From an uncultured archaeon (GTDB lineage: Archaea > Thermoproteota > Bathyarchaeia > 40CM-2-53-6 > CALIRQ01): a DNA stretch of 64,000 nt. Shown here piece after piece: positions 14,072 to 50,678 of the stretch; position 1 is the stretch's first letter, and each line of letters opens with the position of its first letter. The position numbers and the translations under genes were made by a program. The stretch spans positions 46,868 through 110,867 of the forward strand of contig CALIRQ010000006.1 of NCBI GenBank assembly GCA_938042195.1. Reading direction: 5' to 3'. Below the pieces are notes generated by a model, which did not search any database, was not told the origin of the DNA, and saw only the letters and a list, made by a program, of their open reading frames with translations.

Positions 14072-15610
14072 TTGGCTTGGAGGGATTATTTGAAGGACGG
14101 TATCCAGCTCCCGGATCGAGTTTACGTCTTTGACACCACATTAAGGGATGGCGAGCAAACGCCTGAGGTATCGCTTACCCCCGAGGAGAAGTTGGCCATA
14201 GCCAAGCAATTGGATGCCTTGGGCGTCGACGTAATAGAGGCGGGCTTTCCGGTGATATCCAAGGGCGAGATGGAGGCCGTCAAGACGATATCTGAGGCGG
14301 GCCTCAAAGCCGAGATATGCGGATTGGCCAGGGCCGTTCAAAGGGACATAGATGTGGCGGTGGATTGCGGCGTGGATTGCGTTCACACGTTCATAGCCAC
14401 CTCGGAGGTGCATATGGCGAAGAAGCTCAAGATGACCAAGGAGGAGGTATTGGCCAGGGCCGTGGAGGCGGTGGAATACGCGAAGTCGAGGGGCGTAGTC
14501 GTGGAATTCTCGGCCGAGGATGCTACTAGGAGCGATTGGGACTTTTTGTTGGAGGTATACACGGCCGTTGAGAGGGCTGGGGCCGATAGGATAAACGTGC
14601 CGGATACGGTAGGATTCGCCATCCCGAGGGCCATGTTCCAGCTCATAAGGAGATTGAAGGATAGGATCCGGGTGCCGATATCAGTCCATTGCCACAACGA
14701 TATGGGGCTTGCCGTTGCCAATTCCCTCGCCAGCGTTGAGGCAGGGGCCGAGCAGGTACACGTGACCGTTAACGGCCTCGGGGAGAGGGCTGGCAACGCG
14801 AGCTTGGAGGAACTGGCCGTATGCCTCAATGTCCTCTACGGCATCCCGACGAACATAAAGCTGAGCGAAATCTATAAGACCTCCCAGATGGTCTCCTCCA
14901 TGACCGGGGTCATCGTCCAGCCGAATAAGGCGATAGTCGGCAGCAATGCCTTCGCCCACGAGAGCGGGATCCATACGCACGGCGTGATATCGTCCCCCGA
15001 TACCTATGAGCCGATAAGCCCGGAGCTCGTCGGCCGATCGAGGAGGCTTGTGGCCGGCAAGCACGCCGGGAGGCATGGAGTGGAGGAGATGTTGCGCGAG
15101 ATGGGTTTCTCGCTCACCAAGCAACAAATAGACGAGATCTTGGCAAAGGTGAAAGAGATAGGGGATAAGGGCGGCAAGGTAACGGATGCCGACTTGGCGA
15201 GCATGGCCGAGGCCCTGACCGGCTCCCTGCCCCCGGAGGAGAGGAGGATAAGACTCGAGGACTTGATCGTGGTCACCGGGAATAAGACCACGCCGGTCGC
15301 GACCGTCAGGCTGTTGATCGATGGGAAGGAGTATAGGAGTTCCCACTTCGGCGTTGGCCCAATAGATGCCGCCATAAAGGCCGTGAAGAACGTGGTCTCC
15401 GAGGTCGCGGCGTTCGACTTGGTGGAGTTCAGGCTCGATTCCATAACCGGCGGCACGGAGGCCTTGGCGAACGTCATAGTGAAGTTGGCCGACGAGAGCG
15501 GGAGGCTCGTTTCCACGAGGGCCGTTAGGGAGGACATAGTGATGGCGGGCGTGGAGGCGATCATCAATGCCGCCAATAGGTTGCTTTACCTCAGGGAGAG
15601 GAAGCCATGA
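14072..15610 (+). CDS. 2-isopropylmalate / citramalate synthase family (LeuA/CimA)
   Basis: DTTLRDGEQ, HCHNDMG, GLGERAGNA, AFAHESGIH, C-terminal regulatory domain. Substrate specificity cannot be assigned from sequence. Confidence 0.9.
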   Translation: MAWRDYLKDGIQLPDRVYVFDTTLRDGEQTPEVSLTPEEKLAIAKQLDALGVDVIEAGFPVISKGEMEAVKTISEAGLKAEICGLARAVQRDIDVAVDCGVDCVHTFIATSEVHMAKKLKMTKEEVLARAVEAVEYAKSRGVVVEFSAEDATRSDWDFLLEVYTAVERAGADRINVPDTVGFAIPRAMFQLIRRLKDRIRVPISVHCHNDMGLAVANSLASVEAGAEQVHVTVNGLGERAGNASLEELAVCLNVLYGIPTNIKLSEIYKTSQMVSSMTGVIVQPNKAIVGSNAFAHESGIHTHGVISSPDTYEPISPELVGRSRRLVAGKHAGRHGVEEMLREMGFSLTKQQIDEILAKVKEIGDKGGKVTDADLASMAEALTGSLPPEERRIRLEDLIVVTGNKTTPVATVRLLIDGKEYRSSHFGVGPIDAAIKAVKNVVSEVAAFDLVEFRLDSITGGTEALANVIVKLADESGRLVSTRAVREDIVMAGVEAIINAANRLLYLRERKP

Positions 15611-15691
15611 GGAAGCTGGGAGGATCGCTAGGGGATTCCGCAATATTTTTTAATCGAGTTGGCGGGCATCATTCTTCGCCCTGGGCGAAGG

Positions 15692-15816
15692 GCCCTGGTA
15701 GTATAGAGGTATTAAAGATACCGTAAAACCCGGCCTAGTATGTGCGGCTGTCGCCCGCACGACGCGGGTTCAAATCCCGCCCAAAAGGGACCATAATCCC
15801 TTGGCGAGGGGCGCCA
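15692..15816 (+). tRNA. tRNA-Asp(GUC) with two introns (15/16 and 68/69)
   Basis: Removing 15707-15728 (22 nt) and 15784-15808 (25 nt) gives a 78-nt cloverleaf: GCCCUGG UA GUAU AGCCCGGCCUA GUAU G UGCGG CUGUCGC CCGCA CGAC GCGGG UUCAAAU CCCGC CCAGGGC G CCA. Confidence 0.9.
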
Positions 15817-15935
15817 AACCCGCGTCGGAGGGAATCCGAATCACGGGCCTCCTCGGCCCCTAGAGCGAGCCCCGAGGGCTTGGAAACGCAAAAATTTTAT
15901 GCTCGATGTCCCCATCCATTACCGGTCCCGCGGAT

Positions 15936-16131
15936 CCCGCGGTAAGATGCCCAAGGCATCCCGCAAGCTCAGCCTGGTAGAGCTTCCGAGCCGGCCGAGG
16001 CAGGCGGCGGAGAGGCTGTAGGCGCGCGCCTTCGTCGGCGTGCGCTGCCCAAGCCTATCAGGCGACAGAAACCGGAGCGTCGCTGGTTCAAATCGGGCCG
16101 AGGGTCCGTGGAAATCCGGCCCGCGGGACCA
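15936..16131 (+). tRNA. tRNA-Tyr(GUA) with four introns (9/10, 30/31, 37/38, 59/60)
   Basis: Removing 15945-15966, 15989-16014, 16022-16070 and 16093-16114 gives a 77-nt cloverleaf: CCCGCGG UA GCUC AGCCUGGUA GAGC U UCCGG CUGUAGA CCGGA GCGUC GCUGG UUCAAAU CCGGC CCGCGGG A CCA, with the archaeal Tyr identity elements C1-G72 and A73. Confidence 0.9.
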
Positions 16132-16185: not shown

Positions 16186-17205
16186 TTGGCCGAGAAGCGC
16201 CCAAAGGTCATCGTAACCGACCACGTCTATCCCACTATGGAATATGAGGTGGCCCTACTGGAGGGCTTCGGGGCCGAATGCGAAATCCATCAATGCAAAT
16301 CCGAAGAGGATGTCCTAAGGGCCGGGAGCGGGGCGGATGTATTGATGGTCACCTATGCCCCAATAACCCGCCGGGTCCTCTCGGGCCTCGGATCACTGAA
16401 GCTCGTCGTGAGGCATGGGGCCGGCTACGACAACGTCGATTTGAGGGCCGCGACGGAGATGGGCGTGATGGTCGCGAACGTCCCGAGATTCGGGGGGGAG
16501 GAGGTGGCGGATCATTCGATCGCCCTTTTGCTGGCCCTTTTGAGGAAGTTACCGGCCTTGGACGATTTGTCGAAGTCGGGCAAGTGGGGAGAATGGCACT
16601 CGGCCTTGCCCCTCCCCGCCTTGGATGGGCTAACCTTGGGGATACTCGGCTTCGGCAGGATTGGGCAACAAGTCGCTAGGAAGGCCAAGGCGGCCTTCGG
16701 AATGGATGTGATAACCCATCATCCCAGGAGGGATCGGGGAGAGATGCTCGCCGCCGGCGCCGAGCCCGTTGACTTCGAGGAGCTCTTCAGGAAGTCCGAT
16801 GCCCTGAGCATTCACCTTCCATTAACCGAGGAAACGTTCCATTTGGTCGGCGAGGAGGAGCTCCGCATGATGAAGCCAACGGCGGTTCTCGTGAACGCCG
16901 GGAGGGGAAAGGTCGTCGATGGGAGGGCCCTCTACAAGGCCCTCAAGGAGGGATGGATAGCCGGCGCGGGTTTGGATGTGATGGAAGAGGAGCCGCCAGA
17001 TCCCAAGGATCCTTTGTTGACGTTGCCCAATATAATAATAACTCCCCACGTGGCTTGGTATTCGGAGAGATCCCTGAGGGACCTCCAAGAGAGGGCGGCC
17101 CGGGAGGCCATCAGGGTCCTGAGCGGGGGGTTCCCCGAGAACCTCTTGAACCCAGAGGTTTTGAGGGCGAGGGGCCGAGAGGGGGCATCGAAACCAACGG
17201 TTTAG
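16186..17205 (+). CDS. D-2-hydroxyacid dehydrogenase family protein (PGDH/CtBP-like)
   Basis: RHGAGYDNVD, GILGFGRIG, NAGRG, DVMEEEP, TPHVAW. Confidence 0.9.
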   Translation: MAEKRPKVIVTDHVYPTMEYEVALLEGFGAECEIHQCKSEEDVLRAGSGADVLMVTYAPITRRVLSGLGSLKLVVRHGAGYDNVDLRAATEMGVMVANVPRFGGEEVADHSIALLLALLRKLPALDDLSKSGKWGEWHSALPLPALDGLTLGILGFGRIGQQVARKAKAAFGMDVITHHPRRDRGEMLAAGAEPVDFEELFRKSDALSIHLPLTEETFHLVGEEELRMMKPTAVLVNAGRGKVVDGRALYKALKEGWIAGAGLDVMEEEPPDPKDPLLTLPNIIITPHVAWYSERSLRDLQERAAREAIRVLSGGFPENLLNPEVLRARGREGASKPTV

Positions 17206-38437: not shown

Positions 38438-38526
38438 GCCTTCGGGCAAGGCCCATGGGATTATCCCTCAGGCCTCTCCAATCCCGATAATATTAAATAG
38501 GCGGGTTTTCCCTTCCAACGTTCAAG

Positions 38527-38624
38527 GCATCCGGGGGAGCTGGGGGAACCCGGCTGAGAGGGTGGCAGATCCGCCACCGACCCTTGGAACCTGATCCGGG
38601 TAATGCCGGCGAAGGGAGGGATGC
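38527..38624 (+). promoter_or_regulatory. TPP (THI-box) riboswitch
   Basis: P1 GCAUCC/GGAUGC; conserved GCUGAGA, GACCC, GAACCUGAUC and GGGUAAUGCCGGCGAAGGGA; TATA-like ATTAAATA about 30 nt upstream; directly upstream of thiW. Confidence 0.93.
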
Positions 38625-38724
38625 GGTGGATGGGCTATCCGCCGAAGCCCAGCCGAGCGCTGGGGCTCCTTCTCCGATCCGGATCCGTTCCCCCGGGTGC
38701 ATCGAAGCTCGGAGGTGAATGCAT

Positions 38725-49721: not shown

Positions 49722-50678
49722 TCAACCGTAAAGCCAGCATCGAACCATGCGATTGCTCCCTAGCTCAACCGTCGGCGGGGCGCGTTCGCAGGAGGGGATC
49801 GCCGTTAAGCACCTCGGGCGGAACCTACAACCCTTCGGCGGGTTGGCCAAATCCGGTGGGGAGCCGAGTATTGGGGTGGGCTTCGATTTGCCCCCTCGGA
49901 TCCTCGGCGCGGCCGCCAGGAGGCCCCTCGTATAAGGGTGTTTTGGGTCGGAAAATATCAGATCAGAGGGGCCGAGCTCCACTATCTCTCCTGCGTACAT
50001 CACGGCGATGGCATCTGCTATCTCAGACACCACCCCCAAGTCATGCGTAAGGAGCATTATGGAGATACTCAGCCTCTCCCTCAAGTCCTTGAGCAGATTG
50101 AGTATCTGGGCCTGAACTACCACGTCAAGGGCGGTTGTTGGCTCATCGGCGATCAATATATCGGGCCTCAAGGCCAAGGCCATGGCTATCATCACCCTTT
50201 GCTTCATCCCCCCGCTGAGCTCATGGGGGTATCGATCCATAATCCCTTCGTCCAAGCCGACCTCCCATAGGGCCTTTATGGAGAGCTCCCTCGCATCCCT
50301 TTTCGGGAGTCCCAAGCGATAGACGAGCGGTTCCGAAAGCTGATGACCAATGGTGTAAACGGGGCTGAGGGCGTTCATTGCCCCTTGGAAGATCATCGAT
50401 ATCCTTTTCCATCGCACAATCCGGTCGAACTCGCCTTCGGAAAGGCTCATCAAATCGACCCCGTTGAGCCTAACGGCTCCGGAGATTATTCTCCCCGGGG
50501 ATGGGAGGAGCCTCAGCAGCGCGAGGCCAAGGGTCGATTTCCCGCAACCCGACTCCCCGACGAACCCCATCGATAAGCCCCCCTTGAGTTCGAAGGATAC
50601 CCCATCTACTGCCCTGAGGGGGGGCTTATCGGCCGGGAAGTAGTAAGCCCTCAATTCCTCCACCGCGAGCGCCTCCAT
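49722..50678 (-). CDS. oppD: Oligopeptide ABC ATPase (OppD-like)
   Basis: GESGCGKST, LSGGMKQRV, DEPTTALD, CRFRPRC. Confidence 0.9.
   Translation of the reverse strand: MEALAVEELRAYYFPADKPPLRAVDGVSFELKGGLSMGFVGESGCGKSTLGLALLRLLPSPGRIISGAVRLNGVDLMSLSEGEFDRIVRWKRISMIFQGAMNALSPVYTIGHQLSEPLVYRLGLPKRDARELSIKALWEVGLDEGIMDRYPHELSGGMKQRVMIAMALALRPDILIADEPTTALDVVVQAQILNLLKDLRERLSISIMLLTHDLGVVSEIADAIAVMYAGEIVELGPSDLIFSDPKHPYTRGLLAAAPRIRGGKSKPTPILGSPPDLANPPKGCRFRPRCLTAIPSCERAPPTVELGSNRMVRCWLYG

Follow-up and report, generated by a model that had tools for sequence, protein, structure and literature searches.

The subject of this study is a tRNA-Asp(GUC) gene, and the sequence that directly follows it, in a 64,000-nucleotide stretch of DNA (the window) from an uncultured archaeon of the Bathyarchaeia (contig CALIRQ010000006.1, positions 46,868 to 110,867). 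The gene occupies 15692-15816 on the plus strand, is contiguous and colinear, contains two introns and encodes its own CCA. It lies between a 2-isopropylmalate synthase gene (14072-15610) on one side and a 2-hydroxyacid dehydrogenase gene on the other. ARAGORN run on the window missed the gene and the Rfam tRNA model covers just its middle (15696-15783), and it was therefore parsed by hand and against intron-less orthologues. One of its introns, at position 68/69, interrupts the 3' strand of the acceptor stem, and the trailer that starts directly after CCA is antisense to the T-arm region of the same tRNA. The relation between these two elements is what we describe here.

An intron at 68/69 and an antisense trailer in tRNA-Asp

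The parse of the gene and of its trailer is as follows, with positions in the tRNA given in nucleotides (nt) by standard numbering.

15692-15706, plus strand: exon 1 (nt 1-15), with the acceptor 5' strand GCCCTGG, U8 A9, the D-stem GTAT and A14 G15; read from the sequence and matched by intron-less orthologues
15707-15728, plus strand: D-loop intron at 15/16, 22 nt, with the hairpin GGTATT/GATACC and a bulge-helix-bulge (BHB) of the relaxed type
15729-15783, plus strand: exon 2 (nt 16-68), with the anticodon arm (GTC at 15750-15752), the variable loop CGAC and, within the same exon, the T-arm GCGGG-TTCAAAT-CCCGC followed by C66 C67 A68
15784-15808, plus strand: intron at 68/69, 25 nt; from the parse and from relatives
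15809-15816, plus strand: exon 3, GGGCG (G69-C72 and discriminator G73) and the encoded CCA
15760-15770, plus strand: 5' arm of the trailer helix, CGACGCGGGTT, made up of C44-C48 (the 4-nt variable loop), G49-G53 (the 5' strand of the T-stem) and U54 U55; from a repeat search
15817-15827, plus strand: 3' arm of the trailer helix, AACCCGCGTCG, its first base directly after CCA; from the same search
15828-15833, plus strand: GAGGGA, overlapping a GGAGGG block (15827-15832) that is conserved with the sister species only and not with lineages L146 and L216

The BHB of the 68/69 intron is built from the following parts, the caret marking the splice site.

C67 A68 ^ A: 5' bulge
A G ^ G69: 3' bulge
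15785-15790 with 15797-15802: inner helix h', AAGGGA with TCCCTT, both strands inside the intron
15778-15781 with 15803-15806, plus strand: central helix of 4 base pairs (bp), C63 G64 C65 C66 with GGCG
C61 C62 with G71 G70 of exon 3: outer helix, limited to these two pairs

The 68/69 intron thus presents two 3-nt bulges on opposite strands, with a 4-bp helix between them and a splice site in each bulge. By its sequence it is an archaeal BHB tRNA intron at a non-canonical position, for which cleavage by the splicing endonuclease and ligation by an RtcB-type ligase are predicted. The outer helix (C61 C62/G70 G71) has a predicted probability of just 0.04-0.21 and the motif is of the relaxed kind. 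Excision yields CCAGGGC, complementary to GCCCTGG, and the spliced sequence matches that of intron-less orthologues; when folded, the spliced window RNA is a cloverleaf, with probabilities of 0.99 for the acceptor stem and 0.92 for the T-stem at 37 °C. Since the BHB makes use of the T-stem 3' strand and of acceptor base C66, it is incompatible with that cloverleaf. As for the D-loop intron, its removal leaves the D-loop AGCCCGGCCTA, as in intron-less relatives, and its hairpin shows compensatory changes across the four lineages of the window, L001, L146 and L216 (GGTATT/GATACC, GGTACT/AGTACC, GGTAC/GTACC and GGTAT/ATACC).

A preliminary description of this DNA, made from the letters alone, had read 15817-15827 as the exact reverse complement of 15760-15770 and had placed the latter in the variable loop, nt 49-53 and the following UU. 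The repeat search recovered the same two arms (11 nt, 100% complementary, 46 nt apart) and the parse agrees with the placement. The window has three perfect inverted repeats that are 11 nt or longer and have a loop of 3-100 nt, against 1.93 +/- 1.25 expected from 60 first-order Markov simulations; from the window alone the repeat is unremarkable, and it is only through related genes that it goes far beyond chance. The two other perfect 11-nt inverted repeats have short loops and lie at 50571/50621 and 56752/56796. The AGGG of the GGAGGG block is able to pair with nt 2-5, and this block is probably outside the core element.

Link between trailer and intron in related genes

Related tRNA-Asp genes were collected in two scans. 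In the first, one genome per GTDB species was searched with a pattern running from the Asp anticodon loop to the T-loop, which returned at least 120 loci, nearly all of them in Bathyarchaeia and Caldarchaeales. In the second, metagenomes were searched with the pattern “T-loop, 8 nt, 16-42 nt, CGAR|GGGCG”, which added at least about 30 further true cases among bacterial false positives. All gene counts given below are among the matches listed in these scans. Most loci of the first scan have no 3'-end intron, and their trailers are unrelated; every one of the few that carry the 68/69 intron has a trailer antisense to the T-loop and to the region just 5' of it. To put numbers on this, we scored the best ungapped pairing of nt 40-59 with the first 45 trailer bases. 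A score of at least 14 was reached by 30 of the 37 intron-bearing tRNA-Asp genes and by 7 of the 106 intron-less ones (Fisher p = 1e-17). Duplex energies computed with RNAduplex separate the two groups likewise, with medians of -32.1 kcal/mol for intron-bearing and -12.2 kcal/mol for intron-less genes (p = 2e-18). Identical tRNA bodies are split by the presence of the intron: the body CGCCCGACCCGGGTTCAAA scores 25 and 25 where the intron is present and 6-16 where it is absent. Four genes with introns in the 5' half only have low pairing scores. Altogether, antisense segments of differing sequence are found in about 15 trailer types next to intron-bearing genes. A screen for BHB introns in the 3' acceptor strand of any tRNA, covering 248 loci and the window, returned tRNA-Asp genes only, plus one false positive.

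The position of the antisense varies. The statement in the preliminary description that it lies immediately after CCA holds for the window; in other lineages its first base lies 4 to about 25 nt past nt 73. In the sister species (L001-L007, mutually identical in the aligned intergenic region) the trailer reads AAACCGCGTCG, and past GGAGGG everything has diverged. Among the metagenome lineages, L146 and L209 keep AACCCGCGTCG and L216 has ACTCCGCGTCG, the trailers being otherwise unalignable up to the next promoter. Because the trailer is conserved over the antisense only, in four lineages of the window clade, the antisense constitutes a conservation island.

Two side observations concern other genes of the survey. 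Many intron-less tRNA-Asp genes of the Bathyarchaeia (loci L042, L063, L032, L012, L116, L105, L106, L120 and L061) carry, some 10 nt past CCA, a hairpin that resembles a T-arm, such as AGGG-TCCAAAT-CCCT, and a T-run often comes next; the resemblance to the T-arm is direct, not inverted. The tRNA-Asp genes of L062, L022 and L114 have an additional intron at 4/5, in the 5' acceptor strand and exactly opposite the 68/69 intron, and the top four acceptor pairs consequently lie on separate mini-exons.

The BHB itself is conserved throughout. Its central helix, formed by nt 63-66 and the 3' end of the intron, is paired at 4 of 4 positions in all 38 distinct intron-bearing genes, and it covaries with the T-stem, with 16 cases of CGCC:GGCG, 22 of CGGC:GCCG and no mixed one. 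The bulges of the 38 genes conform to C-N^N and A-R^G, and the inner helix h' is 2-10 bp long, variable in sequence and covarying.

Covariation in the trailer helix, which the preliminary description had put forward as a check, was found in an alignment of 34 distinct arm pairs. The pair between nt 49 and the trailer is G-C in 16 of them, C-G in 14 and unpaired in 4. With the register chosen so as to maximise pairing, the paired share of all cells is 78.7%, and it falls to 25-49% once the partner is shifted by 1-3 columns; for the covariation score, which is 0.257, shuffles give 0.179 and none of 500 reaches the observed value. Individual lineages provide further cases. In L145, A45 faces a trailer U; the variable region differs in L195 and L237, where CUGCGGC is paired with GCCGCAG in the trailer; and between L152 (CGCGTCG) and L144 (CGCGTTG) a G·U pair has changed to G-C. 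In L157 and L238, which have an extra intron beside the T-stem, the trailers match the intron-containing sequence that exists in the precursor only. In L062-type genes, L196, L142 and L149, the antisense runs on into the anticodon-stem 3' strand. G·U pairs are many, which indicates selection on the plus-strand RNA.

These data assign alternative partners to two segments. The partner of nt 49 is either nt 65, in the T-stem, or the trailer, and that of nt 63-66 is either nt 49-51 and G7 or the 3' end of the intron; between the GCGGG and CCGGG classes of T-stem, all three partners switch together. On sequence grounds, trailer, T-stem and intron thus fit a switch with mutually exclusive helices, each supported by covariation.

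Predicted folding, a proposed switch and its rivals

When precursor and trailer are folded together with RNAfold, the minimum free energy structure at both 37 and 70 °C is the 11-bp trailer helix enclosing the BHB hairpin exactly. This helix (44-55 with 77-87) surrounds the nested BHB; one of its strands also belongs to the T-stem, and it crosses the acceptor stem formed by 1-7 and 66-72. In the predicted ensemble of the window RNA with its native trailer, the trailer helix has a probability of about 0.9 and both T-stem and acceptor stem stand at 0.00; without the trailer, at 37 °C, the T-stem is at 0.44 and the acceptor stem at 0.49. The predicted stabilisation by the window trailer is about -13 kcal/mol for unspliced vs -7.5 kcal/mol for spliced RNA at 37 °C, and -4.5 vs -0.8 kcal/mol at 75 °C. 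The same direction is predicted for 27 of 28 genes, with medians, unspliced vs spliced, of -13.4 vs -8.1 kcal/mol at 37 °C and -5.7 vs -2.4 kcal/mol at 70 °C. Since the stabilisation is larger before excision than after it, excision would take away most of the advantage of the trailer-bound state.

Taking these results together, we consider it probable that the trailer is a cis-acting antisense element which forms, with the 68/69 intron, a two-state switch that keeps the precursor competent for splicing until the intron is excised. In the precursor state, the trailer would be paired with nt 44-55, i.e. the variable loop, the 5' strand of the T-stem and the beginning of the T-loop; for other lineages, pairing would extend to A59 or into the anticodon-stem 3' strand. 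A pre-formed T-hairpin may be invaded by strand displacement, which is possible because the complement reaches past the T-stem into single-stranded flanks. C61-C66 would be freed, so that C63-C66 could form the central BHB helix with the four intron bases that directly precede the 3' bulge, C61 and C62 could pair with G71 and G70 as a short outer helix, and the intron hairpin would provide the remaining helix. Both splice sites would thus be placed in 3-nt bulges for the archaeal splicing endonuclease, with the trailer helix, mutually exclusive with the T-stem, clamping the whole BHB domain. Because the trailer helix crosses the acceptor stem, in a pseudoknot topology, a cloverleaf should not form while the trailer is paired. 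The preliminary description had already suggested that pairing of the trailer with the T-stem 5' strand would free nt 61-65 for the BHB; the invariant pairing of nt 63-66, the association of antisense with intron, the covariation at nt 49 and the predicted nested and exclusive helix all speak in favour of this proposal.

In the mature state, excision would delete two of the helices of the precursor state and make the acceptor 3' strand contiguous, shifting the balance towards the cloverleaf. RNase Z would then cut after the encoded CCA, the trailer would depart and the T-arm would fold. The RNase Z of methanomicrobial archaea cuts just after an encoded CCA and requires the acceptor stem and not the T-arm (PMC7479834). 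By analogy, we infer that the enzyme of Bathyarchaeia behaves in the same way. Its need for an acceptor stem would fit an order in which splicing is followed by formation of the acceptor stem, then by removal of the trailer and finally by folding of the T-arm.

Several points weigh against the proposed switch. Firstly, the thermodynamic model gives no sign that the BHB needs the trailer: the central BHB helix has a predicted probability of 0.64 at 60 °C and 0.51 at 75 °C with the trailer, of 0.83 and 0.76 without it, and of 0.55 and 0.50 with a shuffled trailer. In this model, the clear effect of the trailer is that T-stem and acceptor stem are abolished. Furthermore, the trailer helix is still preferred after splicing (0.74-0.95), and therefore release of the trailer would need tertiary folding, proteins or cleavage, which are beyond the model. 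Secondly, some genes do not follow the pattern. The sister species trailer AAACCGCGTCG has one uncompensated A·G mismatch, which leaves 8 contiguous pairs, and a convincing helix is missing in three lineages, i.e. L214 (where the trailer pairs with the leader), L129/L236 (6 bp only) and L147 (where a bulge is required). In eight genes the antisense is preceded or overlapped by a T5-T7 run at which transcription might end; in these genes (Caldarchaeales and some of L062 type) the T-run itself belongs to the antisense. Thirdly, both scans are limited by their search patterns (T-loop TTCAAAT, 3' exon GGGCG), the sequences compared are phylogenetically related and not independent, the covariation register favours pairing by its choice, and all support is in silico.

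The first of these points bears on the rival that survives best. The trailer helix could be real and selected and yet serve as a lock on processing order or quality control: by blocking the cloverleaf it would keep RNase Z, CCA-related or modification enzymes and the aspartyl-tRNA synthetase from acting, while splicing would proceed equally well without it. The predicted loss of T-stem and acceptor stem in the presence of the trailer, with no gain for the central BHB helix at 60-75 °C, is what such a lock would produce, and the acceptor stem needed by methanomicrobial RNase Z (PMC7479834) is topologically excluded by the trailer helix. However, the antisense is tied strictly to the 68/69 intron and not to introns generally, and the helix is placed exactly so as to free the strand that the BHB uses. 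Both facts are more directly explained by a role in BHB formation than by a lock. We therefore regard a lock without any part in splicing as unlikely, but as a serious rival; it is compatible with the proposed switch and the two roles are non-exclusive.

Two other explanations are much less probable. The antisense could be a relic, at the level of DNA, of the insertion of an intron or mobile element, left by terminal inverted repeats, fold-back copying or gene conversion of the T-arm, and have no RNA structure at all. Archaeal tRNA introns are thought to be mobile, intron transposition in Thermoproteales being an example, and the repeat does flank the intron on both sides. Such an origin is made very improbable by the left arm, which is essential tRNA sequence, by the many G·U pairs, which are not complementary in DNA or on the opposite strand, by the retention of pairing while spacing and extent of the antisense vary between lineages, and by the way trailers follow the lineage-specific extra introns of L157 and L238. 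Alternatively, the released trailer could be a trans-acting product, that is, a small antisense RNA directed at tRNA-Asp or at further tRNAs that share its T-arm. Independent functions of 3' trailers are known from bacteria and eukaryotes, and the T-arm part of the target is indeed common to many tRNAs. Against this, the antisense also spans the Asp-specific variable loop and covaries with it, its occurrence is confined to genes that carry the intron in cis, and neither a small RNA family nor C/D boxes were found there; we give this explanation as little credence as the preceding one. Finally, chance complementarity or neutral hitch-hiking of a functionless 11-mer in a GC-rich intergenic region, for which the unremarkable repeat count of the window and the mismatch in the sister species could be cited, is effectively refuted by some 15 trailer types with compensatory and G·U changes that occur only beside intron-bearing genes.

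Further candidates were rejected on specific grounds. A C/D box small RNA guide was discarded, as the nearest RTGATGA, at 16867, lies more than 1 kb away and no small RNA family comes near its gathering score in 15640-15920. A terminator hairpin with oligo-T was dismissed, as no T5 run occurs within 120 nt downstream of the window gene and T-runs in relatives occupy varying positions with respect to the antisense; 31 of 39 genes are free of T5 runs between tRNA and antisense. Duplication of an attachment site by an integrative element would give a direct repeat and not the inverted one observed. A minus-strand gene does not fit, no open reading frame of at least 80 codons being found on either strand in 15644-15918. 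A split or permuted tRNA is incompatible with a contiguous, colinear gene whose trailer pairs with exon nt 44-55 and not with a flank; moreover, the CCA/trailer junction is a 5x5 internal loop and not a BHB.

Flanking sequences, known systems and significance

The leader upstream of the gene contains additional features.

15644-15653, plus strand: A/T-rich box ATATTTTTTA, about 40 nt upstream of nt 1, by its sequence a probable promoter of the TATA box/B recognition element (TATA/BRE) type
15674-15690, plus strand: leader hairpin CTTCGCC/GGCGAAG, overlapping the leader block; from the repeat search
15678-15689, plus strand: leader block GCCCTGGGCGAA, a conservation island in four lineages of the window clade
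15678-15684, plus strand: GCCCTGG, a direct copy of nt 1-7; from the repeat search
15680-15687, plus strand: CCTGGGCG, a near-copy of the 3' acceptor strand and discriminator (nt 66-73, CCAGGGCG)

The A/T-rich box is conserved in the window, L001 and L146 and mostly absent in L216; a similar box, AAAAATTTTAT, lies upstream of the next tRNA gene. For the leader, the preliminary description had envisaged a decoy, CCTGGGC at 15680-15686, able to pair with nt 1-7 in competition with the leader hairpin. Both elements are present in the window, but the block is confined to the window clade, being absent from the other intron-bearing lineages whose leaders were compared, and the hairpin loses two pairs, uncompensated, in the sister species. 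The leader block is thus a possible, though weakly supported, decoy or partner for the orphaned 5' acceptor strand. In L216 the block lies 10 nt farther from the tRNA start. The upstream GCCCTGG was also considered as the true 5' exon, followed by a 14-nt mini-intron, and rejected because the required 4-bp central helix is impossible (CCCU vs CCCU).

The neighbouring gene is a multi-intron tRNA-Tyr(GUA) at about 15926-16131 on the plus strand, whose introns lie near 9/10, within the anticodon region and within the T-loop. The leader of this gene has TCCCGCGG (15926-15933), a direct copy of the 5' acceptor strand (15935-15942), and the two can form a hairpin because CCGCGG is palindromic; the arrangement is identical in the sister species. 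The 2-isopropylmalate synthase of the window shares 94% identity with a protein from a “Candidatus Bathyarchaeia archaeon” metagenome-assembled genome. The gene order around tRNA-Asp is shared with seven GenBank Bathyarchaeia contigs, and synteny based on leuA is found with one very close sister species only, the next leuA relative being non-syntenic. Elsewhere in the window, a TPP riboswitch is matched over its full length at 38523-38635 on the plus strand (Rfam RF00059, 71.7 bits vs a gathering score of 54.3).

In the full-text literature searched, no helix between trailer and exon is described that is coupled to a non-canonical intron, which is not proof of novelty. The closest relatives are the non-canonical BHB introns of multi-intron pre-tRNAs in Thermoproteales and other Thermoproteota, which likewise form their BHB at the expense of the cloverleaf and are removed by the endonuclease; splicing endonucleases of broad specificity accept relaxed BHB motifs (PMC4090602, PMC4033280). 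In the descriptions consulted, the BHB of those introns is built from exon and intron only, whereas tRNA-Asp adds a conserved third partner, the 3' trailer, which would sequester the strand that competes with the BHB. As in split and circularly permuted tRNA genes of Nanoarchaeum, Caldivirga, Thermofilum and red algae (PMC4090602, PMC3218864, PMC3978253), complementarity in a flank would help to build an endonuclease substrate. In those genes, however, the flanks pair with each other, make up the BHB and are cut off by the endonuclease, whereas the tRNA-Asp gene is contiguous, its trailer has an exon as partner and no BHB exists at the CCA/trailer junction. The sole exception among relatives is L214, in which the trailer GGGACGCC is complementary to the leader GGCGTCCC and not to the T-arm region. 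The processing stems of archaeal rRNA (PMC7714728) also enclose a domain by long-range pairing of flanks and present a BHB, but they consist of two flanks and contain the BHB, whereas the tRNA-Asp stem consists of exon and trailer and merely encloses it. Leader-trailer and leader-RCCA pairings of bacterial and eukaryotic pre-tRNAs (PMC9433436) are similar in that a precursor-specific pairing of flanks tunes enzyme access; they extend the acceptor stem, whereas the tRNA-Asp trailer would invade the T-arm and is coupled to an intron. Lastly, the arrangement shares with riboswitches and attenuators the logic of anti-terminators and anti-sequestors, in which a strand has two conserved alternative partners and an event flips the fold. 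There, the trigger is a ligand or the ribosome and the output is gene expression; here, the trigger would be the irreversible excision of an intron and the output the order of maturation. In its logic, the trailer is an anti-stem element of a conformational switch, and sequence comparison supports it well as an accessory to archaeal tRNA splicing, so far seen in tRNA-Asp only.

The competition between BHB and cloverleaf at introns in the acceptor stem, T-arm and D-arm has so far been treated as a matter of pairing between intron and exon alone. A conserved, covarying trailer points to selection outside tRNA and intron that steers the folding of the precursor, and it predicts an obligatory order of maturation, with splicing ahead of 3' trimming. 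It also bears on how introns are tolerated or gained at structurally disruptive positions, and we suggest that the flanks should be inspected by tRNA gene finders and when introns are annotated in Thermoproteota. More tentatively, and with more doubt than the switch itself, a general folding programme encoded in the flanks can be imagined for the multi-intron pre-tRNAs of Bathyarchaeia and related Thermoproteota. Leaders and trailers would act as strand-displacing decoys against the cloverleaf strands that compete with non-canonical BHBs, and every excision would set off the next refolding. Cases in point would be the trailer of the Asp 68/69 intron, the copies of acceptor strands in the Tyr and Asp leaders, and the pairing of trailer and leader in L214. 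If true, such a programme would amount to a chaperone system of RNA alone, by which highly fragmented tRNA genes become viable.

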